DNA of 55,472 nt, filler included, from Jimgerdemannia flammicorona (taxonomy: Eukaryota), in the NCBI GenBank assembly GCA_003990765.1. It is 3 parts of 3 records of this genome, joined end to end, with 100 filler letters (N's around TTAATTAATTAA, not from the genome) between each part and the next. Parts side by side here need not be neighbours in the genome. Positions count along the whole stretch, not along the records: positions 1 to 18,430 come from RBNJ01002212.1; 2 more parts are not named here. One strand, given 5' to 3'. Shown here piece by piece: positions 1-38,569 of this stretch. How positions within the stretch are numbered: the stretch's first letter is position 1; each line of letters begins with the position of its first letter. The translations under genes were made by a program, and so were the position numbers. The notes under the pieces were generated by a model, which saw only the letters and a program-made list of their open reading frames with translations, ran no database searches and had not been told where the DNA came from.

Positions 1-124
1 TTCTCGTGCTCGTTGGTGATAACGAACTGGTGGAGATATCTGATATATCCTCCGATATATCCTCCGATATATCATCCGACGGTTCCGAGATTTCTCCTAA
101 ATGTACTTCTTGATCTTTAGACAT
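1..124 (-). CDS. hAT transposase N-terminus (partial)
   Basis: ATG at 124 gives MSKDQEVHLGEISEPSDDISEDISEDISDISTSSLSPTSTR. The homologous frame in copy 2 continues to SWVWNH (BED finger). Confidence 0.65.
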   Translation of the reverse strand, partial: MSKDQEVHLGEISEPSDDISEDISEDISDISTSSLSPTSTR

Positions 125-454
125 TTCGAATGTTTGATGATGGCAGAGACTGGGAGCTTGAGTGGGAGGCCGAGAGCTGGAAAGTGGCTAGGAAGTGGTG
201 AGCTAGGGAGTGGCAAACTGGGAAACAAGCTGGGGGGGCAGTGAACTAGGGGGCAGGGAGTTGTGGGGAGGCAGCGAGCAGCGAGCGGCAGGAAAAGCCA
301 GGAACTGTGGGGGGCAGCAAGAGGGAGAGCAGCGAGGTGGCGTGCGATAGCCAATAATCGATTGTGGACAGAGGATGGATGAATAAATACATATGGGTGG
401 TGAACTGGTACTCATCACGCAACTGCAAACAGCAAACAGCAAACATACTTTGGA

Positions 455-843
455 GATTCAGCGTATTCTGCATTGAGCAAGGTTTGTAACAACGTTTGAG
501 CAAGGTTTGTGGTGCGTTTGAGTGAGATTTGCAGCGAGGTTCGAGCAAGATTTGCAAGCGAGATTTGCAAGCGAGATTTGCACGTAAGATTAAAGCGAGA
601 TTTGCATAAGCCAGGCTTTGCAAGCCTTGTGCTTGCAAGCCTGGACAAGCTCAGTCACAAGCTGATATGACGTGTATATAAGCTGATATCACATGATATC
701 AGCTATCGGCTGAGCTTGTAAGTGTAAGGCTTGCAAATCTTGCTCGAACCTCGCTGCAAATCTCGCTCAAATGTACCACAAACCTCGCTCAAACGTCGTT
801 GCAAACCTTGCTCAATCGGGGCTTACGCAGAACCCGCTGAATC
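455..843. repeat. Palindrome 1 inside hAT element
   Basis: About 472-559 is the imperfect reverse complement of about 729-816. Centre AGCTGATATCACATGATATCAGCT near 681-704. Confidence 0.9.
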
Positions 844-850
844 ACGCAGA

Positions 851-1066
851 GAGGAGTGGAACACAGTGAGAAAAGCTCCAGATTGCAAGCGTAAGTGTAA
901 GCATAAGCATAAGCATAAGCTTTGCTCCGCTCAGTCTGACAAGCTGATAATAAGCTGATATCATGTGATATCAGCTATCAGCTGAGCAGAGCAAAGCTTG
1001 CGCTTGTGCTTACGCTTACACTTATGCTTGCAATCCAGAGCTTTCCTCACTGCATTCCACTCCTCT
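851..1066. repeat. Palindrome 2 inside hAT element
   Basis: GAGGAGTGGAA...GCTTTGCTC arm mirrored by GAGCAAAGC...TTCCACTCCTC. Centre AGCTGATATCATGTGATATCAGCT near 953-976. Confidence 0.9.
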
Positions 1067-1520
1067 TGCGTTCCACTCCTCTTGCGTTCCACTCCTCTTG
1101 CGTTCCACTCCTCTTGCGTTCCACTCCTCTTGCACAACCCTCACGTATTCCTCCACCTCTCTCACCCTCATTCCTCAGATTACAAACAACATGCAATTTA
1201 GAAATGGGTTTCAAAAGAGATTTCGAAGAGATTCCGAAAGAGATTTCGAAGAGATTCCGAAAGAGATTTCGAAGAGATTCGGAAAGAGCTTCTGAAAGAG
1301 ATTTCGGAGAGATTCCGAAAGAGCTTCTGAAAGATATTATAGCTTTTGAACATTTAAGATATCGAAAGCTTACTTTCGCCTCTTGTTCTTTTCGTCTCGT
1401 CCTTCGCTTCGCCTCATCCTTCGCTTCGCCTTGTCCTTCGCTTCGCCTCGTCCTTCGCTTCGCCTCATCCTTCGCTTCGCCTCGTCCTTCGCTTTGCCTC
1501 ATCCTTCGCTTTGCCTCACT
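1055..1520. repeat. Short tandem repeat tracts (TTCCACTCCTCTTGCG; GAGATTTCGAAGAGATTCCGAAA; CTTCGCTTCGCCTCGTC)
   Basis: Directly visible tandem units, with fewer units in copy 2 (about 20310-20640). Confidence 0.85.
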
Positions 1521-1532
1521 TAATTCACCACT

Positions 1533-2804
1533 ATGTTGAGAAAACGTGGATATGAGTGCCCGGCCAATAAGTATTTACTTGGCCCCCCCCAAGCTCAACG
1601 CACTTCAGCTCGCCGTCCCAAAGCTCGGCGCCCTAAAGATGCCCAGCTTGCCGACACCCAGCCTGCTGAGCTTACCGACACCCAGCCTGCCGAGCTTGCC
1701 GACACCCAGGTTGCCAAGCTCACCGACTCCCAGCTCGCTGACCCTCAGCTCCCCAATCTCCAGCTTGACCGCCAGCTCACCGCCAGTCCGCAAGCATAAG
1801 GTCCCCCACCAGATCTCAATAACGCAGCTCAAAAAAGTTAGTTTTTTTTTTTTTTTCTTTTTAAATCAATGTCTGAATTTTTTTTCTAATAACATTCGAA
1901 ATATACATATCCTCCAGCTTCTAAGCCTGGGCTGGAGCGCAAATCTTGCTACAATTGCCATTTTTGCCATCAAGTTTGCCCAAACACCACCTGGAAGCAT
2001 TGCCAAATCAATTTCCCGGATGCCCCAAATCTCACAGAGAAAAGGCCTTACAAATCGGACATTAGGCATGCTTTCGCTGCGGCCAACAAATGCATTAAGA
2101 AAGTACATAACGACCAACTGAGGCAAGAAGTCATAAGAGCGATAGAAAACCATACGAAAATCATGGAATGTTTGTCATACCACACCGGCTTCAAGGTGAA
2201 TGCCAAAGCGTGGAACAAGCAAGGTTGTCCAGATGGAATTGTCGTCATGGATGAACACGAAAAACTGCTGGCCATATTTGAACGAGTACCGGTGAAGAAC
2301 GACAAAATGCTTTATACGTGACTGATGGATAGCAGGCTTGTGCATTTTGTTGAGGGGGGTGGTAGTAGAGGAGATGGAGAGGTGGGAGAGGTCGGTGCCA
2401 GTGGAGGAGTCGGCGCTGGTGGAGAGGTCGGTGGAGAGGTTGGCGCGGGGGTGGTCGGCATGGGGGAGGTCGGCGCAGAGGAGGTCGGTGCGGAGGAACA
2501 TGGGGAGGTCGGCGTGGGGGAGGTCGGCGCAGAGGAACATGGGGAGGTTGGCACGGAGGAACACAGGGAGGTTGGTGTGGAGGAACATGGGGAGGTCAGC
2601 GCGGAGGAACATGGGGAGGTCGGCATGGAGGAATACGGGGAGGTCAGCGCGGAGGACGAAATGGAGGTTGGTGCAGAGGAGGTCGGCCCAGAGGAGGATA
2701 TGGAGGAGGAGGATATAGAGGAAAGCGGTTCGGAATATATGGAGGAAGATGGTTCGGAATATGAGAAGGAGGAGGATCAGTTGGTTTATAGTGATGAAGA
2801 GTAA
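1533..2804 (+). pseudogene. Spliced second gene of the hAT element: repeat-rich N-terminus, C-x2-C-x6-C motif, acidic Glu/Gly-rich tail (exons 1533-1836, 1918-2804)
   Basis: Intron GTTAGT(1837)...CTAAT...CCAG(1917) joins the 1533 and 2325 ORFs in one frame. Stop TAA at 1797 reads CAA in copy 2. Stop TGA at 2319 is consistent with decayed CGA. Confidence 0.65.
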
Positions 2805-2959
2805 GATCTGTTCACACCGGTAAGTTCTTTATTTTTCTGATTTACTTCCTATTTATTTCCGATTTCATTTTGATTTCTGATTCCTAATTATGTTTCTGTT
2901 TGTTTATTCTAAATATATCTTAGATGTGCAATATTTTTTTTTTGGTGCCTTGTAGCTTA

Positions 2960-3320
2960 AAGACGGATTAAAGACAGGTCTGTGTTGGGTTAAATATGGG
3001 TCAGGGTTGGGTCACATATATTTCTTGGGTCGGGTCACGTATATTTCTCGGATTGGGTTAAAGACGGGTTACGTATAATTCTGGGTCAGGTTAAAGACGG
3101 GTGACGTACGTTTCCAGGTCGGGTTAAAGATGGGTGACGTATAATTCCGGGTCGGGTTAAAGATGGGTGACATATTATTCCGGGTTGGGTTAAAGATGGG
3201 TGACGTATTATTCCGGGTCGGGTTAAAGATGAGTGACGTATAATTCCGGGTCGGGTTAAAGACGGGTGACGTATAATTCCGGGTCAGGTTAAATATGTAC
3301 ATGGGTCGGCTCGGGTTGCG
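2960..3320. repeat. hAT subterminal 33-bp tandem repeats
   Basis: Unit GGGTCGGGTTAAAGA(C/T)GGGTGACGTATAATTCC, also at about 22190-22570 and 38230-38560. Confidence 0.9.
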
Positions 3321-3519
3321 ATGCACTAGACCAGTAGTAGTCTCATTGGATATTCTTAATAGTCTTCTCAGTTTCAAGGTGACCAGCTAGTGGAGAGTCA
3401 AGATGTTCATGAAGAATCTTATACTGTAGTTCAGGATTGGCAGAAATATATACTTTGTCTTGATAGTATACAAGGTTGTCCTTAATGGTGTACTATTTCT
3501 TGAATTCCTTAGTATTCTT

Positions 3520-5559: not shown

Positions 5560-5900
5560 CTTTGATGACTGGTAGGGTGGCTTGCTCCAGGATGAGCTGC
5601 ACAATTCTGTCACCTTTATTGACAGTATATGGTTGGTTCTTGTAGTTGACTAGCAGGACTTGCATTTTACCTCAGAAGTCAGAGTCAATGACTCCAGCAC
5701 TAATATCTAATAAGTGCTTGAAACTGAGGCCAGATCTTAGTACAATCCTTACATAATGTTCCCTGGGGATTTCAACTGAAAGGCCAGTTGGAATGAGCCT
5801 TCTTTCATGTACCAGAATAGTGACTTGTTGTACTGCTTGAAGGTCCAAACCAATGGCTCCTTCTGACTGTTCTGGGTCTTGGGAGTTGACTTGTATGAAA
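5560..5900 (-). pseudogene. dUTPase domain between Gag and protease
   Basis: GAIGLDL, IPTGL, RSGL, GVIDSDF, followed by GDRIVQLI. Confidence 0.88.
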
Positions 5901-5979
5901 TTGAGTACAACTTTTTGTTCAACTAGTTGAACTTGAGTATCTTTGGACAGGACCAGAATCCTCTTTGGTTTGGCAGTTT

Positions 5980-6933
5980 TCTTAGGACATTTGGTTGCAA
6001 TGTGACCAGGCTGATGGCAAAAGAAGCAGGCTCCAGCCTTCTTGAGATGCTCCTTTTCCTCAGGTGTAAGCTTATCTTTCTTGCTCTTATTGATGGTATC
6101 TAGGTCCATGAGAGCAGATCCAATAGTTCTGACTTTGGATTCCTCTCTTTTGTAGTTGTTGTTGAAGGGAGTCTCTTCTGTTCAAAGTAGTGACCATAGG
6201 TGATGATATCAAACCTATCAGCAATCTTCATTACTGTATCTAGGTTCTTGGATTCTTCTAGTTCAATATGAACTCGGGTTTGACCTTTCAGGCCTTGGAT
6301 GTACTTGTCAACCTTCTTGTCTTCAGTGACATGTGATAATTCTAACAGGATTGACAGGAATTATATATTGTATACTTGCACAGACTTGAGTTGTTTGACA
6401 TTTGCCAGATAGTCTCACACAGCCTTAGTGCTGTTGACTGGTTTGAATTGACCTTGAATGGCATCAGAGAATTCATTCCAGGTTCTGATCTGGTCAGCAA
6501 ATCTGGTATTCTGGACATAGTTTTACCACCAGATTGCAGCATTCCCTTGGAGGAGTGTGGCAGCGAATTGGACTAGTGTTGCTTCTTCCAAATTGGTCAG
6601 TTCTCCATATTGCTCCAATTGGAAAAGCCAGGCATCAGTAGACAGTCCTCCTCTTTGACTATCAAAAGTGTCAGGCTTCTGAGGCTTAATGGTAACTGCT
6701 GTTAGATATATTGATGTCAGTGGAGGTACAGAGGTATGAGCAGGGGCCTTGCTTTTCTTTCTTTCTATACATTTTTGAAGTTGAGCAATCTGAGCTAATG
6801 TAGTCTACAAAAGACTCTCAATGGCCCTGGTTGACTGAGTAGGGTTTTTCTGTTCCTCTTCTTCTTGCCAATTATAAGAGACATTGCCTGGGCCATAGGT
6901 ACTATATGAAGGGTTCTACTTATTGTCCTCCAT
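5980..6933 (-). pseudogene. Gypsy A gag with CCHC zinc knuckle
   Basis: KPDTF, YIQGLK, MDLD and CFFCHQPGHIATKC read on the minus strand with internal stops. Confidence 0.8.
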
Positions 6934-18723: not shown

Positions 18724-18839
18724 ACAGCTCCTCCCACCTTAACACCTTTTCTCGCAGCCCCAACCACTGCCCCTCCTCAAATACAAAAAGCCAATGTCCT
18801 GCCAGTCCCACCACCTCCTAAGTACTTCCCGAATTCCAT

Positions 18840-19330
18840 TCTATCCATACTCACAATATCATCTTTCTTAGATCAGTGAGGATTCTCAGCATGCTGGAGA
18901 GGTAAAAGCATGGCATTGTGATACTTCCAGAGATGTCATTTAAGATTGTTGATATTGCCATCCTTTGATATATAGCTCTAAGTTGTATAATGGTTGCAAC
19001 TGATGAGCTTACTTTGTAAATTCTATTTGAATAGAGAGATATGAGACTATATTAGAACCTCAACCACTTACAACTGACCACCCACCCTTATGACTGATGA
19101 GACCAATTACTCCTATGAATGCAACTATTAGCACAATGTATAAAACTACCTTTGTGGTATGATTCCACACCCAGCTATCACTAGGTTTTGTTTTTATTTT
19201 TATTCTCATGCTTGTTGGTGATAATGAACTGATGGAGATATCTGATATGTATATCCTCTGATATATCCTCCAATATATCATCTGATGGTTCTGAGATTTC
19301 TTTTAAATATACTTCTTGATCTTTAGACAT
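18840..19330 (-). pseudogene. hAT transposase N-terminus with BED zinc finger (intron 19023-19149)
   Basis: SWVWNHTTK | NLQSKLISCNHY...SKDGNINNLK*HLWKYH fits the BED pattern W...CxxC...G-T-N-L-x2-H-L-x3-H once decay is allowed for. Confidence 0.75.
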
Positions 19331-20650
19331 TTTGAATGTTTGATGATAGCAGAGACTGGGAGCTTGAGTGAGAGGCTGAGAGCTGAAAAGTAGCTAGGAA
19401 GTGGCAAGCTAGGGAGTGGTAAACTGGGAAACAAGCTGGGGGGCAGTAAACTAGGGGGCAGGGAGTTGGGGGGAGGCAGCAAGTGGTGAGAAAAGCCAGG
19501 AACTGTGGGGCCTGGAACAGGAGTCAGTGAGCTGAAGGGCAGCGAGAGTGAGAGCAGCGAGGTAGCATGCAATAGCCAATGATCGATTGTGGACAGAGGA
19601 TGGATGAATAAATACACATGAGTGGTGAACTGGTACCCATCATGCAACTGCAAACAGCAAATATACTTTGGAGATTTAGCATGTTCTGCATTGAGCAAGG
19701 TTTGTAATGACATTTGAGCAAGGTTTATAGTACATTTGAGCAAGATTTGCAGTGAGGTTCGAGCAAAATTTACAAGCAAGATTAAAGTGAGATTTGCAAG
19801 TGAGATTTGCATGTAAGATTAAAGCAAGATTTGCATAAGTCAGGCTTTGCAAGCCTTGCACTTGCAAGCCTGGACAAGCTCAGTCACAAGCTGATATGAC
19901 ATGTATATAAGCTGATATCATGTGATATCAGCTATTGGCTGAGCTTGCAAGCACAAGGCTTGCAAAGCCTAGCTTATGCAAATCTCACTTGCAAATCTCA
20001 CTCAAACCTCACTGCAAATCTTGCTCAAATGTACCACAAACCTCACTCAAATATTGTTGCAAACCTTGCTCAATTGGGACTTATGCAGAACCTGCTGAAT
20101 CATACAGAGAGGAGTAGAATGTAGTGAGGAAAGCTCTGGATTGCAAGTGTAAGCATAAGTATAAGTGTAAGCATAAGCTTTGCTCTGCTCAGTCTGACAA
20201 GCTGATAATAAGCTGATATTATGTAATATCAGCTATCAGCTGAGTGGAGCAAAGCTTGTGCTTATGCTTACACTTATGCTTACGCTTGCAATCTAGAGCT
20301 TTCCTCACTGCATTCCACTCCTCTTGCATTCCACTCCTCTTGCGTTTCACTCCTCTTGCACAACTCTCACATATTCCTTCACCTCCCTCACCCTCATTTC
20401 TCAGATTGCAAACAACATACAATTTAGAAATGGGTTTTGAAAGAGATTTCGAAGAGATTCCAAAAGAGATTTCGAAGAGATTCAGAAAGAGCTTCTGAAA
20501 GAGATTTTGGAGAGATTCTGAAAGAGCTTCTGAAAGATGTTATAGCTTTTGAACATTTAAGATATTGAAAGCTTACTTTTGCCTCTTGTTCTTTTTGCCT
20601 CATCCTTCACTTCACCTCATCCTTCACTTCGCCTCACTTAATTCACCACT

Positions 20651-22027
20651 ATGTTGAGAAAACGTAGATATGACCACCTGGTCAATAAGTATTTACTTGG
20701 CCCCCCCAAGCTTGACGTGCTTTAGCTTGCTGTCCCAAAGCTCAGCACCCTAAAGATGCCCAGCTTGCTGACATCCAGTCTGCTGAGCTTGCTGACACCC
20801 AGCCTGCTGAGCTTGCCAATACTCAGTCTGCCGAGCTTGCCAACACCCAGCCTGCTGAGCTTGTCAACACCCAGTCTGCTAAGCTTGCCGACACCCAGGT
20901 TGCTGAGCTTGCTAACTCTCAGCTCACTGACCCTCAGCTCCCCAATCTCCAGCTTGATTGCCAGCTCACCGCCAGTCCACAAGCACAAGGTCCCCCACCA
21001 GATCTCAATAATGCAGCTCGAAAAAGTTAGTTTTTTTTTTTTTTTTCTTTTTAAATCAATGTCTGAATTTTTTTCCTAATAACATTCGAAATATACATAT
21101 CCTCTAGCTTCTAAGCCTGGGCCGGAGTGCAAATCTTGCTACAATTGCCATTTTTGCCATCAAGTTTGCTCAAATACTACCTGGAAGCATTGCCAAACTA
21201 ATTTCCCAGATGCTCCAAACCTCACAGAGAAAAGGCCTTACAAATTGGACATTAGGCATGCTTTTGCTGTGACCAACAAACACATTAAGAAAGTACATGA
21301 TGACCAACTGAGGCAAGAAGTCATAAGAGCAATAGAAAACTGTACAAAAATCGTGGAATGTTTGTCATACTACACTGGCTTCAAGGTGAATACCAAAGTA
21401 TGGAATAAGCGAGGTTGTCCAGATGGAATTGTCATCATGGATGAACATGAAAAACTGCTGGCCATATTTGAACAAGTACTGGTGAAGAACAACAAAATAC
21501 TTTATATATAACTGATAGATGGTAGGCTTGTGCATTTTGTTGAGGGGGGTGGTGGTGGAGGAGATGGAGAGGTGAGAGAGATCAGTGCCAGTAGAGGAGT
21601 TGGCACCAGTGGAGAGGTTGGTGGAGAGGTCGGCATGGGGGAGGTCAGTGCGGGGGAGGTCAGTGCAGAGGAGGTCGGCATGGGGGAGGTCAGTGCGGGG
21701 GAGGTCGGTGCAGAGGAGGTCGGCACAGGGGAGGTCAGCATGTAGGAATATGGAGAGGTCAGTATGGGGGAGGTCGGCATGGAGGAACATAGAGAGGTCA
21801 GCATGGGGGAGATCAGTGTGGAGGAACATAGGGAGGTCAGTGTGGAGGAACATGGGGAGGTTGGTGTGAAGGACAAAATGGGGGTTGGCATGGAGGAGGA
21901 GGATATAGAGGAAAGTGGTTTGGAATATATAGAGAAAGATGGTTTGGAATATGAGAAGGAGGAGGATCAGTTGGTTTATAGTGATGAAGATGAGGAGGAT
22001 TAGTTGGTTTATAGTGATGAAGAGTAA
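20651..22027 (+). pseudogene. Second gene of hAT element, copy 2
   Basis: Same ATG context (ATGTTGAGAAAACG), same intron, same SCYNCHFCHQVC motif and acidic tail. Confidence 0.6.
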
Positions 22028-22702
22028 GATCTATTCACACTAGTAAGGTCTTTATTTTCCTGATTTACTTTCTATTTATTTCTGATTTCATTTTGATTTC
22101 TGATTCCTAATTATGTTTCTATTTGTTTATTCTAAATATATATCTTAGATGTGTAATATATTTTTTTTGGTGCCTTGTAGCTTAAAGGCAGATTAAAGAT
22201 GGGTCTGTGTTGGGTTAAATATAGGTCAAGATCAGGTCACATACATTTCTCAGGTTGGGTCATGTATATTTCTTGAGTCAGATTATGTATATTTCTCGGG
22301 TTGGGTTAAAGACGGGTTATGTATAATTTCGGGTCGAGTTAAAGACAGGTGACATATGTTTCCAGGTAGGGTTAAAGATGGGTGATATATAATTCCAGAT
22401 CAGGTTAAAGATGGGTGATGTATTATTCTGGGTCAGGTTAAAGATGGGTGACATATTATTCCAGGTCGGGTTAAAGACAGGTGACATATAATTCCAGATC
22501 AGGTTAAAGACAAGTGATGTATAATTCCAGATTAGGTTAAATATATACACAGGTTGGCTCAGGTTGTGATGCACTAACTATGAGCATACCACTTTCTGAA
22601 AAAATAGACTTTACCAGACTTTTGACCTCCCAAATGGTATAACAACAATAGGACAAATTAGAAGGCTCCAATGAGGATGTTGAAAGCTAAAAAGGGGAGA
22701 GT

Positions 22703-29827: not shown

Positions 29828-30976
29828 TTAATTGACAGATGTTTCATCTTCCCTCAGAGAATTCATCCACCCCAACACGGCTGTAAAGACTATAATAACC
29901 AGGAGGAATACGAATAAGACGATTTTCCAGTGACGTGTTGCCACCGACAACCAGCGTGCAATCCTTCTATTCTCCTGAAGCAAATACTGCTCCCTCTGAC
30001 GAAGCTGCTCAACTAGTACCCGCTGTTGTTCTTCTCTATGAAGAAACCCCTCAACCATTACCCGCTGTTGTTCTCCCCTTCGAAGAAGCTCTTCAACTGT
30101 GACTCCATTAATCACGTCCGTAGCGAAAACCTCGGGGAGAAGAACCCGGATCTCTTCAACATTCATACCGAGATCAGTCAGGTCCCCACGAAGGGCATCT
30201 AATAGGGCTCCACGGTTACAATCCGCTCCCGGGCCGCGAAAATATTCAAGTAGGTGGCCTTGCCGCCGACGGTTGTGGTGCATTTTCCACTGCTCTTCGG
30301 AAATGAAAACGTTCCCGTGTTCAGCACGCACGTGCTCGTGGGCATCACCACCACAAGAAGCAAGGCAGATGGCACAGAAAGCATTGAAAAGGGGTGGACA
30401 ATTCGGGCAATAGAGGGCGCAGCACCCGGTGAAGTCGACGAAGGCCATCTTGCAACAAGGGCGCTTGATGGTGAGGATGTTGTCGAGGACATGCATCCGT
30501 CGGCGCTCAATGTCGTCGTGGGGGGAAAGTTGAGGAATCTGTCGCGCGTCCTCAGCCAGATATTGTTGCTGCATTCTCTCTGTGAACACCTCTAAAACAC
30601 TGTTCAGGTTGTTGAGGATGAGGCCGGCAGCGACGGGAGGCAGATGAGCAGCGATATCTCGGAGGGGGGCAAAGGTAGGGGCGTCACAATTGGATATGGG
30701 ACATGGGAGCTTTAGGCGGTGGGTTTGGATGTTCTCGATGTTGGCTCGTGACTCAAAGTAGTTTCCGAGACACTCATCACAGATGAAATGTCCGTCAGGG
30801 CATGTCAGTCCCTCATCGGTAGGCTTATCTTCAAAGCAGATGCAACAATGGGCGAGATTTCTCTGGCCCAGTTCATCGGAGCCACCGCCGCCATCTCTCG
30901 GCTGCAAGGGATGATCCTTAACAGGAAGACGTGGCCGGTTTTGAGTTCTTCGACTTCTTTCAGCTGGGTCAGTCAT
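29828..30976 (-). CDS. RBR-like E3 ubiquitin ligase (RING1 + IBR/Rcat-type domain, coiled coil, C-terminal TM helix)
   Basis: CCICFED...CPDGHFICDEC...CPISNC RING, then DFTGCCALYCPNC...FCAIC...HEH, an E/Q/R-rich helix and IVLFVFLLVIIVFTAVLGW. Intact 382-aa ORF. Confidence 0.88.
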   Translation of the reverse strand: MTDPAERSRRTQNRPRLPVKDHPLQPRDGGGGSDELGQRNLAHCCICFEDKPTDEGLTCPDGHFICDECLGNYFESRANIENIQTHRLKLPCPISNCDAPTFAPLRDIAAHLPPVAAGLILNNLNSVLEVFTERMQQQYLAEDARQIPQLSPHDDIERRRMHVLDNILTIKRPCCKMAFVDFTGCCALYCPNCPPLFNAFCAICLASCGGDAHEHVRAEHGNVFISEEQWKMHHNRRRQGHLLEYFRGPGADCNRGALLDALRGDLTDLGMNVEEIRVLLPEVFATDVINGVTVEELLRRGEQQRVMVEGFLHREEQQRVLVEQLRQREQYLLQENRRIARWLSVATRHWKIVLFVFLLVIIVFTAVLGWMNSLREDETSVN

Positions 30977-32237
30977 ATTTGCGGACTTAGGATTGTATTA
31001 TTTCGAGAAATTTAAGCAAATGGTGGTTATGTTCAAAGAACAGGGTTAGACTTTCCGTTCTTGGCCAGCATCGCATGGTCAGAAAACAAAATGTTCTTAC
31101 TGGAAGCTGCGATGCAATAAATATTCTGTTGTGCTTTGGAAGATAAGTGGCAAATAATAGTAGAGATTTTAATCTCTATCAACGTAGTCTTCCGGAGTAG
31201 TGTGTGTGCTGTGGCGTGTCGGTGTCGGAGTAGGAAAAATCACATGATACCTCAAAGGACGCCAATCAACTTCACCGTTTATATTAGACTAGTATGGGTA
31301 ACGTGATGGGGTTAGAATGTTTTACAATACCCGTTAGATTGTGTGCGCAAATACCCTATGAATACAACAGTATGCTAGTAACTCCGCCGTGTATAACCTC
31401 ATTGAAGGTATCGTGGTTGTTATTCCAGTTCTAGTATTGTTATGTCTGTCACTATAATACAAGGTCCAAGGTGAGCACTTCGGCAACGTGAGCGACAAAA
31501 AAATTTTGTTCCAGATACTTCTTTCTCGCTCAATAATAAACCTTCCCATACATCCTGAGACGTATCGTTAACCACACACACACCTCGACTTATTATGCTA
31601 GTGAGAGAATTTTGCAAGATTCAACAACTCTCCCACTTTGTGAACTGTCACCCTCACACCGAGGCTGCTGAAGAATGAAGTTCTATAAAATACAAATCCT
31701 TTCACTTGTAACATTTCTATAAAGTACTCTGAGATAATAATAGCTATCCGCCATTTTAACACTCAACCAGCTTTACTTCCTCCAATTACTTTATACACCA
31801 GACTGCATATATTTCTCTGATGTTTACTTTTCTCTCTCCACCTATGATAAATCTGTATTACTTTAAGCAAACTTATTATCTCCTCTTCTAATATTATTCA
31901 TCTTACAGCACTTCTTTCTAATACTTAAACCTCTCAATTTACTCTATTATTATAGTTATTACTACTATATATTCTATTATATTAGATCAGTTTTTACACT
32001 TTTATAACTCTACTTTCTCAAAATTACTAATATTTATATTCTTATCTAAGATATCATTTATAGTTATATTAAGTAAAATATAATTATAATATTTTAGTAT
32101 TTTTTAAATATTTAAAAATTTTCTATTAGTTATATTTAATTTTATTAAAATATCTAATACAAATTTAAAAATCTATTATAATTAGTTATATAAATCCAAA
32201 ATAGCTAATAATAATAATAATAAAAGTACTTATATTA

Positions 32238-37052: not shown

Positions 37053-38160
37053 GGAATTCCCATTTTGAAGCCTCTCTTAGATGTTACGACGAGATGGAGT
37101 TCTATACATGAAATGTTAGTGCATGCTCTAGAGATTTGTAAGGTAAGATTTTGAATCTATTTGTATAGATTTTGGAATACAATTCAGAAGTATTTTGGTA
37201 CTAAATAAATTGATATTACATCCAAATAGGGCTTGGATATATTGTGTGCTATGGATAAGCAAATGAGCGATATATCTGAAGATGCATGGCAACAATTTGA
37301 ATTGATTTGCCAATTTCTCGAACCTTTTGCCAAAGTGACAACTGTGATGTCAGCTTTGAAGTATCCTATAATAGCGGCTGTTATCCCACTATTTAATCAG
37401 CTATGTGATCACCTCGAAGATGTCATCGATATATATCAAACTAGTGAACATTTTAATCAGGTATATATATGATTTTGAAAGTAATTTTATTTGTGAATTT
37501 AGGAACTAATTTAGTAAGTAATTGGGAAGTAATATGTGTATATTTTTATTTTTTATAGATAATGCTTACCACTGCTGAGAATGCACATACGAAACTTCTA
37601 AAGTATTACTGCAAAATGACACCATTATACAGCATAGCTTTGGCCTTAGATCCACATATCAACATGCATTATTTCTGTCATGAGCAATGGAAAAAATCCT
37701 TAATTGATGAATGGAAGAATCAGATGGAACGTATCTGGGAAAAGGAGTATAAGCCTGTTAATGCTATCATTATATCCTCAATATCTCATGATGCCAATGA
37801 TTTTATCAACTCAATATATGAGAAGAAACAGCGTGTTGATGTGGATGATGAGCTTGAATGGTGGGTGTTGTTTTTATGTTTTTTGATTGGCTTGGTTAAT
37901 TTTCACTCATATTTCTCTGTTTCAGTTATTTATCAGAGAATTCAGCTGATCCTCATATAGATATACTGGATTGGTGGTGGCGAAATCAGTCAGTATATCC
38001 TAATCTTTCACGAATAGCTTGCAATTATCTTGCTATTTCGGCAACATCTGTTCCATCTGAACATATTTTTTCTATTACTGGTGAGCTAGTGACTGAACAT
38101 TGAAACAGCTTGTGTGTAAATACAATTCGTGCATGTATGTGTTTGGATTCTTAGTGGTCT
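37053..38160 (+). pseudogene. hAT transposase C-terminal part, spliced (introns about 37143-37229, 37461-37558, 37861-37925)
   Basis: LDVTTRWSS, FLEPF, KLLKYY, ALDP and dimerization domain ILDWW...YPNLSRIA..YLAISATSVPSEHIFS. Confidence 0.9.
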
Positions 38161-38569
38161 TCAGATATTTTTCACTTTCAATTACTCTGAATATTATCCA
38201 AATATTTTCCGAATCATTTTTTCAGAGCAGAGTTCAGAGGGTCAGGTTCAGGGTCGGATTCAGGGGTCGGGTTCAGGGTCAGGTTTAGGGGTCAGGTTCA
38301 GGTTTGGGTTAAGGGTAAATAATGGGTCGGGTGACATACATTTCCAGGTTGGGTTAAAGATGGGTGACATATTATTCCGGGTCAGGTTAAAGACGGGTGA
38401 CATATAATTCTGGGTCAGGTTAAAGATGGGTGACGTATAATTCCGGGTCAGGTTAAAGACGGGTGACGTATAATTCTGGGTTGGGTTAAAGACAGATGAT
38501 ATCTAATTCCGGGTTGGCTGTTTTATGGGTCGGGTTTCGGGTTAATCAGGTCGGGTTTGCAGAGCACTA
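37053..38569 (+). mobile_element. hAT transposon 3' end, inserted in a Gypsy D LTR
   Basis: Transposase followed by 33-bp subterminal repeats and the GCACTA terminus. Confidence 0.88.

Follow-up and report, generated by a model that had tools for sequence, protein, structure and literature searches.

Transposable elements of the hAT and piggyBac superfamilies, which both serve as tools for gene delivery, are regarded as having a single gene. A second element-encoded protein is familiar from other DNA transposons, such as TnpA in case of the CACTA elements. In PIF/Harbinger elements, this second protein contains a Myb/SANT domain (PMC12730594). As far as the main text and Table S1 of the same study extend, TET/JBP genes are carried by the hAT7 elements of fungi (Puccinia) and by other superfamilies, between which they have been passed, piggyBac being mentioned in neither place (Kojima 2025, PMC12730594). 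The statement of an earlier note on the DNA investigated here, that hAT elements normally encode only transposase, thus has a published fungal exception in the TET-carrying hAT7. For this TET cargo an anti-silencing role was proposed, which is untested there as well (PMC12730594). The VANC proteins of VANDAL elements combine conserved domains with repeat regions that vary, and their targets are tandem repeats within their elements (Hosaka 2017, PMC5735166).

The distinct organization of a hAT family in the fungus Jimgerdemannia flammicorona (assembly GCA_003990765.1) is reflected in the stretch of 55,472 nucleotides analysed in this study, termed the window, which contains three of its copies. 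The element is a two-gene hAT of about 6.0 kb, with the transposase on one strand and an accessory gene in divergent orientation. What appears to be new is that the predicted accessory protein belongs to a family common to hAT and piggyBac elements, and thus to a wider group than the earlier note had claimed. The features of the window to which we refer are the following:

1–124, minus strand: start of exon 1 of the hAT transposase; in the family its frame runs on into a BED-finger exon, and the remainder lies past the contig start
125–1532, no strand: intergenic region with fold-back arms at 472–816 and 844–1071 and tandem arrays of 13, 16, 12/23 and 17 nt
688–697, with a second copy at 960–969, no strand: E-box-like palindrome, family state ATCACGTGAT
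1533–1836, plus strand: accessory gene exon 1, with basic N-terminus, repeats of 24 nt (8 aa) and a premature TAA at 1797–1799
1837–1917, plus strand: accessory gene intron, phase 1, with GTTAGT donor, CTAAT branch and CAG acceptor
1918–2351, plus strand: core of accessory gene exon 2, about 140 aa, with predicted Cys/His knuckle, long basic helix and small beta-rich domain
1947–2003, plus strand: motif C-x2-C-x3-H-x2-C-x7-C, with Cys at 1947 and 1956, His at 1968 and Cys at 1977 and 2001
2352–2804, plus strand: accessory gene tail, a Gly/Glu repeat and an acidic part; stop at 2802–2804
3031–3293, no strand: subterminal array of a 33-nt repeat, inverted at the opposite element end
3303–3328, minus strand: hAT terminus of type A (TAGTG...)
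18813–22576, plus strand: second, more decayed family copy, with the gene at 20651–22027 and its intron at 21026–21107 (82 nt)
37053–38569, plus strand: third family copy, comprising the 3' part of the transposase and a type-B terminus

Two other features of the window concern different sequences. An LTR-type element adjoining the hAT end encodes a CCHC knuckle followed by a dUTPase domain (5675–6181, minus strand), and an open GC-rich and Cys-rich RING-like frame of 389 aa is located amid very AT-rich DNA (29831–30997, minus strand), its best Pfam match, at E 0.008, being below the cut-off.

The assignment to the hAT superfamily is illustrated by a Dimer_Tnp_hAT match of 74.9 bits in copy L033, by DDE-type motifs in the family frames and by a zf-BED match of 28.1 bits in the transposase of the relative L164. 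The terminal inverted repeats of hAT elements typically start with (T/C)A(A/G)NG, and the ends of this family read TAGTG on both sides, being imperfect and of two types, A and B. The transposase ATG at 124 on the minus strand is in frame with the BED-finger exon of the family and the element terminus at 3328 is located as the earlier note had claimed. The family comprises at least 150 copies, counted among the best 150 of 336 protein candidates and the best 40 of 262 DNA candidates. In the copies analysed, a non-random sample composed of the best DNA matches and 40 protein matches picked for long contigs, both ends were found in 25 of 45 long loci, mostly 5.9–6.1 kb apart, and transposase DNA lies upstream of the accessory gene in 41 of the 45, with three interrupted and one cut by the fetch. 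The 8-bp target duplications of the 25 complete copies match at 7–8 of the eight positions in 20 cases, at 6 in three, and at 5 and at 2 in one each. Since one pair of ends and one duplication enclose both genes, the idea that the accessory gene resides in a nested element with its own termini fails. The fold-back arms of the intergenic region and the presence of the gene in two superfamilies could be read in its favor, but the DNA flanking the gene in hAT elements has nothing in common with that in piggyBac elements, and the same layout recurs in L164, so that we consider such nesting extremely improbable. The order of the ends, with type B followed by transposase, accessory gene and type A, is found in 23 of the 25 complete copies, and the interior is flipped with intact duplications in the remaining two. 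Among 48 typed gene-side ends five are of type B, the switch falling into the inverted 33-nt arrays; both end types can be inspected in loci L034, L056, L060, L002, L005 and L033 and at 3031–3328 and 38200–38569 of the window.

The region between the genes (125–1532) is presumed to act as a shared bidirectional promoter. Within it, the stretch 640–1010 folds at a z-score of −6.2, and Rfam has no matches in positions 1–3400 of the window. Both fold-back palindromes are centered on the E-box-like 10-mer, a single copy of which is also contained in the intergenic region of L164; it is absent from the piggyBac copies and was thus found in the two hATs only.

The accessory gene itself is well defined by its sequence. 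Joining 1533–1836 and 1918–2804 results in a frame of 1191 nt, which confirms the plus-strand gene with a frame-keeping 81-nt intron that had been described before; the intron has GT–AG borders, and the exon-2 peptide reads as quoted in the earlier note. The frame contains premature stops at 1797–1799 and 2319–2321 (TGA), and three more would appear within 1837–1917 without splicing. The description of the gene as conserved in both copies of the window does not hold in view of these stops in copy 1 and of a 1-nt frameshift in exon 1 of the second copy. Across the family, the intron claim withstands a broader test: among the 62 of 77 copies where both intron ends are contained, 58 show GT..AG borders and 42 have a length of 82 nt (81 nt in the first window copy), with lengths divisible by three in just six. 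The phase is kept in 50 of 58 copies for exon 1 and in 40 of 51 for exon 2, and the periods of tandem repeats are multiples of three in all 16 rows within the gene, compared to 5 of the 18 rows outside coding DNA. Together, intron borders, exon phase and repeat periods provide good support at the level of sequence for the gene model, which describes what by all appearances is a real second protein-coding gene, spliced, of about 400 aa and divergent from the transposase. An alternative acceptor at 1926 was discarded, as it is out of frame. Exon 1 is not conserved outside the hAT family. The acidic tail claimed earlier was measured at 35% D+E and is also present in the homologs L163, P0004 and P0005.

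The Cys/His motif at the start of exon 2 was previously likened to the first half of a fungal zinc cluster. Its pattern, C-x2-C-x3-H-x2-C-x6/7-C, is invariant in nine of nine family-level sequences, with the last Cys in ten of ten, and the invariant residues of the core are C, C, H, C, C, Y, R and W; in the six frames of the window it is confined to the two accessory-gene copies. The proposed C-x2-C-x6-C spacing is thus retained in all nine, but membership in the Zn2Cys6 family is not, since cysteines 5 and 6 of the cluster (the C-x2-C-x6-8-C half) are missing in all homologs and Pfam scores remain below the cut-off. Zn_clus matches 2 of 16 members at 14.5 and 14.9 bits, compared to a cut-off of 21 (E 0.028–0.04), aligning positions 1–20 of the 39 in the model only, whereas the window protein and the core of the hAT family itself obtain no Pfam match to it, and the best PDB match, Put3, is found at E 0.63. 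We thus describe the motif as resembling a zinc cluster by sequence, without being a member of Zn2Cys6 (PF00172). In Gal4, the first four zinc-cluster cysteines ligate one of two zincs, and it is possible that the motif constitutes a one-zinc derivative of the fungal cluster. The reversion of CpG decay, by which the earlier note had arrived at CRFRH within the motif, did not stand up to comparison, with a G at 1960 and a C at 1965 each found in 0 of 77 copies, whereas the 27 true CpG sites of exon 2 keep C or G in 32–91% of copies. Arg occupies the first reverted position in 0 of 8 outside homologs and the second in 4 of 8, and this single second change may therefore predate the family. The extra Cys encoded at 1965 is confined to the hAT family (0 of 8 outside homologs), its place being taken elsewhere by Arg (4), Lys (2), Gly or Ser. 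With this additional residue, the hAT family shows a C-x2-C-x2-C-x3-C-P spacing which could suggest a ferredoxin-like Fe-S protein, and Fer4-type Pfam matches are found at E 0.02–0.06; all are under the cut-off, and as the third Cys is absent from all eight outside homologs, C-x2-C-x2-C-x3-C is not conserved and a 4Fe-4S ferredoxin is refuted at the family level, leaving this interpretation with a negligible likelihood.

Our searches of Pfam, PDB, atlas and by fold comparison have provided no significant match for the accessory protein. The best PDB sequence-profile hit, at E 0.024, falls on a low-complexity helix, the ESM Atlas contains no usable match, with leads only below 0.9, and searches for longer proteins with a single core or a 16-row alignment, which are weak evidence, found nothing. 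A single-sequence structure model reaches a pLDDT of 42 and a model from seven rows a pLDDT of 57 with a pTM of 0.26, values falling below 50 for residues 1–25, where the motif is located; Foldseek yields no E below 0.7 and the best VIA-align Z of 3.9 concerns long helices only. The predicted succession of knuckle, long basic helix and small beta domain is thus to be taken as secondary structure only, from a model with a pLDDT of 57. Since our searches of the freely accessible full-text literature found no description of the gene family, the protein appears, within this scope and with a prior annotation in Repbase being possible, to represent an undescribed family with a new domain.

A search of 1.84 billion representatives provided three matches with E up to 0.001 (best 1e-7), to which a profile search added three; these are singletons which share the core and, where their length allows, the acidic tail, and no relative was found in prokaryote genomes and viral contigs. 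From one of them, two metagenome contigs, L163 and L164, were reached (two confirmed of 592 pattern matches). The hAT in L164, which shows no decay (CpG o/e 1.1), has a TAGTG end. Its transposase is 53–65% identical in five segments, with the same exon layout, and its accessory gene is open, divergent from the transposase and in the same place as in the window hAT. The opposite end of this element and its tail, which is 46% acidic, are supplied by L163. Compared to the window hAT, the accessory core is 35% identical and the transposase core 54%.

A second pronounced feature of the gene family concerns its presence in piggyBac elements of the same genome. The check whether homologs always sit inside hAT terminal repeats has given a negative answer, and the description as a 'captured or element-specific regulator' stands in so far as the gene belongs to the element and a regulator is plausible, but not in 'element-specific', since piggyBacs carry the gene too. 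Searching the genome of J. flammicorona with an outside homolog gave at least 95 matches among the best 150 of 161 candidates. Of 17 loci outside the family lists, 12 show the gene head-to-head with a piggyBac transposase and four more share DNA with those at 83–90%, and nine further loci comprise seven decayed hAT copies and one piggyBac. The transposase is identified by DDE_Tnp_1_7 (84.1 bits vs a cut-off of 22.4) and a Cys-rich C-terminus. In locus L092 (1550–8199), the gene lies together with the transposase and a kinase frame between CCCT-type inverted ends that have a palindromic core in common; piggyBac flanks show TTAA at two ends and are elsewhere TATA-like or decayed. At least five piggyBac families carry the accessory gene, in versions that are 59–85% identical to each other and 30–36% to the hAT version, and they contain a phase-1 intron at the same position. 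The third gene of piggyBac family B is an open kinase frame of 381 aa located inside the ends (L092 6463–7605, minus strand; Pkinase 136 bits). Families C–F are 8–11 kb long with long tandem arrays and share another decayed conserved coding stretch without Pfam match (L098 3479–3787, L105 8337–8762, L095 and L103). A further divergent group (L148 4904–5323, L152 and L165), at about 26% identity, resembles the hAT family in intron and tail end.

In a tree of the genes, the piggyBac versions form one group with a support of 91–96, and midpoint rooting, which with the long hAT branch provides no true root, sets this group beside the hAT family of the window; L148 was left out of the later tree. 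A single shallow piggyBac group beside two deep hAT lineages leans towards transfer from hAT to piggyBac, as far as an unrooted tree can suggest a direction. The best reading of the sequences is that of a portable gene family, carried by DNA transposons and presumably passed between the hAT and piggyBac superfamilies.

The copies of the hAT family have decayed in a specific manner, with a C>T loss of 0.48 at CpG, 0.15 at CpA, 0.08 at CpC and 0.02 at CpT compared to transversions of about 0.3–0.5%, and a CpG loss of 31–58% in individual fetched copies. We read these rates as the mark of a young family on which a directed process, either RIP-like or driven by methylation, has acted. Inside the family, the decay of the accessory gene is neutral, with synonymous, missense and nonsense rates alike, and none of 36 copies has a stop-free spliced frame; among the fetched copies every one tested is broken and no longer active. 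Between families, the accessory gene is under purifying selection: dN/dS amounts to 0.17–0.34 in eight of ten pairs of family consensuses, the other two being saturated, and the 95% intervals of pN/pS are below 1 in all ten pairs, two of the families being based on two copies each. In a control restricted to transversions, which is unaffected by C>T decay, changes are rarer at 0-fold than at 4-fold sites in ten of ten pairs (p<0.05 in seven). It thus appears that the protein was functional while the elements diverged, and we are highly confident that the gene encodes a selected accessory protein of transposons. The idea that part of a host gene for a zinc-cluster transcription factor was captured passively and has no function for the element would agree with the faint Zn_clus and Put3 resemblance and the neutral decay of present copies, but is already largely refuted by these tests. 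It is also opposed by the open frame at 35% identity in the hAT of another organism and by a zinc-cluster resemblance that ends after about 20 residues. Moreover, with L104/L148 and L165 set aside, none of the loci that we examined contains the gene outside a transposon, and we regard such a capture as very unlikely.

The function of this protein may be approached from its layout and distribution. The Cys4/His knuckle and the basic helix could bind DNA or chromatin of the element, the acidic tail could serve as activation or histone-binding region, and the protein might thereby sustain transcription of the element in a host whose repeats are subject to methylation and C>T mutation. Since the gene accompanies two unrelated transposases, the most likely target of its product is the silencing or transcription machinery of the host and not the transposase, and as this genome mutates CpG in repeats, an activator or anti-silencing factor is our best guess. 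We hold the resulting view of an element-encoded regulator or anti-silencing factor with even confidence. It is consistent with the divergent gene pair around a 1.4-kb region rich in repeats and palindromes and with the host pressure reflected in a CpG loss of 48%. Conversely, the level of CpG loss hardly changes from one end of the element to the other (0.41–0.51 in 24 bins), showing no protected footprint, hAT and piggyBac have no candidate target motif in common in their non-coding DNA, and neither a fold or family match backs the predicted DNA binding nor are the zinc-cluster cysteines 5 and 6 present; the neutral decay within the family, without any stop-free spliced frame, equally counts against it.

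The missing footprint would be compatible with a co-factor of transposition, which helps the transpososome in end binding, targeting or, via its acidic tail, in nucleosome removal at the target without anti-silencing role, in the manner of the Myb-like Harbinger protein or the TnpA of CACTA elements. This proposal fits the constant position of the gene, which in both superfamilies invariably points away from the transposase and lies close to one end, as well as the subterminal arrays as potential binding sites and a tail suiting a histone chaperone. However, two unrelated transposases with unrelated ends argue against a specific partner contact, and the transposases of both superfamilies are known to function without a partner, which makes such a role rather unlikely. 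We attribute a similarly low probability to the alternative that selection maintained a cargo directed at the host cell or at copy number, be it a repressor of its own transposase, a host-fitness or a drive factor, instead of an activator. Purifying selection merely indicates that the protein mattered, and the open kinase gene of piggyBac family B illustrates that such elements gather varied cargo; still, a basic knuckle-helix combined with an acidic tail is the layout of an activator, and no secretion or enzyme signature was seen.

Collectively, the regulator reading places the accessory protein between several described systems. With Zn2Cys6 factors such as Put3 and Gal4 it shares the C-x2-C-x6-C spacing, a recognition loop with His and basic residues and a fourth Cys 6–7 residues further on, and their order of linker, long helix and acidic tail after the cluster recurs in the predicted layout of the accessory protein, whereas their cysteines 5 and 6 are absent from its homologs. 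As in case of Harbinger Myb/SANT proteins and CACTA TnpA, a second putative DNA-binding protein is encoded by the element, but those proteins each pair with a single transposase and define its superfamily, whereas the accessory gene spans hAT and piggyBac and shows no Myb/SANT match. The TET-carrying transposons are similar with respect to a second gene in a fungal hAT, a gene family passed between superfamilies and a methylating host, and different in their TET/JBP dioxygenase domain, for which core, exon 1, tail and the open L163 protein show no Pfam match, and in target duplications of 7 instead of 8 bp. VANC of the Arabidopsis VANDAL elements (MULE) offers the parallel of a non-enzymatic accessory protein with a conserved domain and variable repeats, encoded in an element rich in non-coding tandem repeats, although kingdom and superfamilies differ, the Pfam scan detects no sequence similarity, and VANC binds its own element sequence-specifically and hypomethylates it, whereas the indirect footprint result was negative here. 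By this analogy, the protein might do in fungi what VANC does in plants. As a portable factor without enzymatic activity, based on a truncated zinc-cluster module and swapped between superfamilies, it would counteract silencing by binding the repeats of its own element and thereby preventing CpG methylation and the ensuing C>T decay. We consider this tentative proposal somewhat unlikely in this complete form. In this respect, a conserved helper gene that crosses between hAT and piggyBac suggests a function independent of the transposase and most likely directed against host silencing, and the open copy in L163/L164 makes the question of a VANC-like, sequence-specific anti-silencing factor in fungi directly testable.
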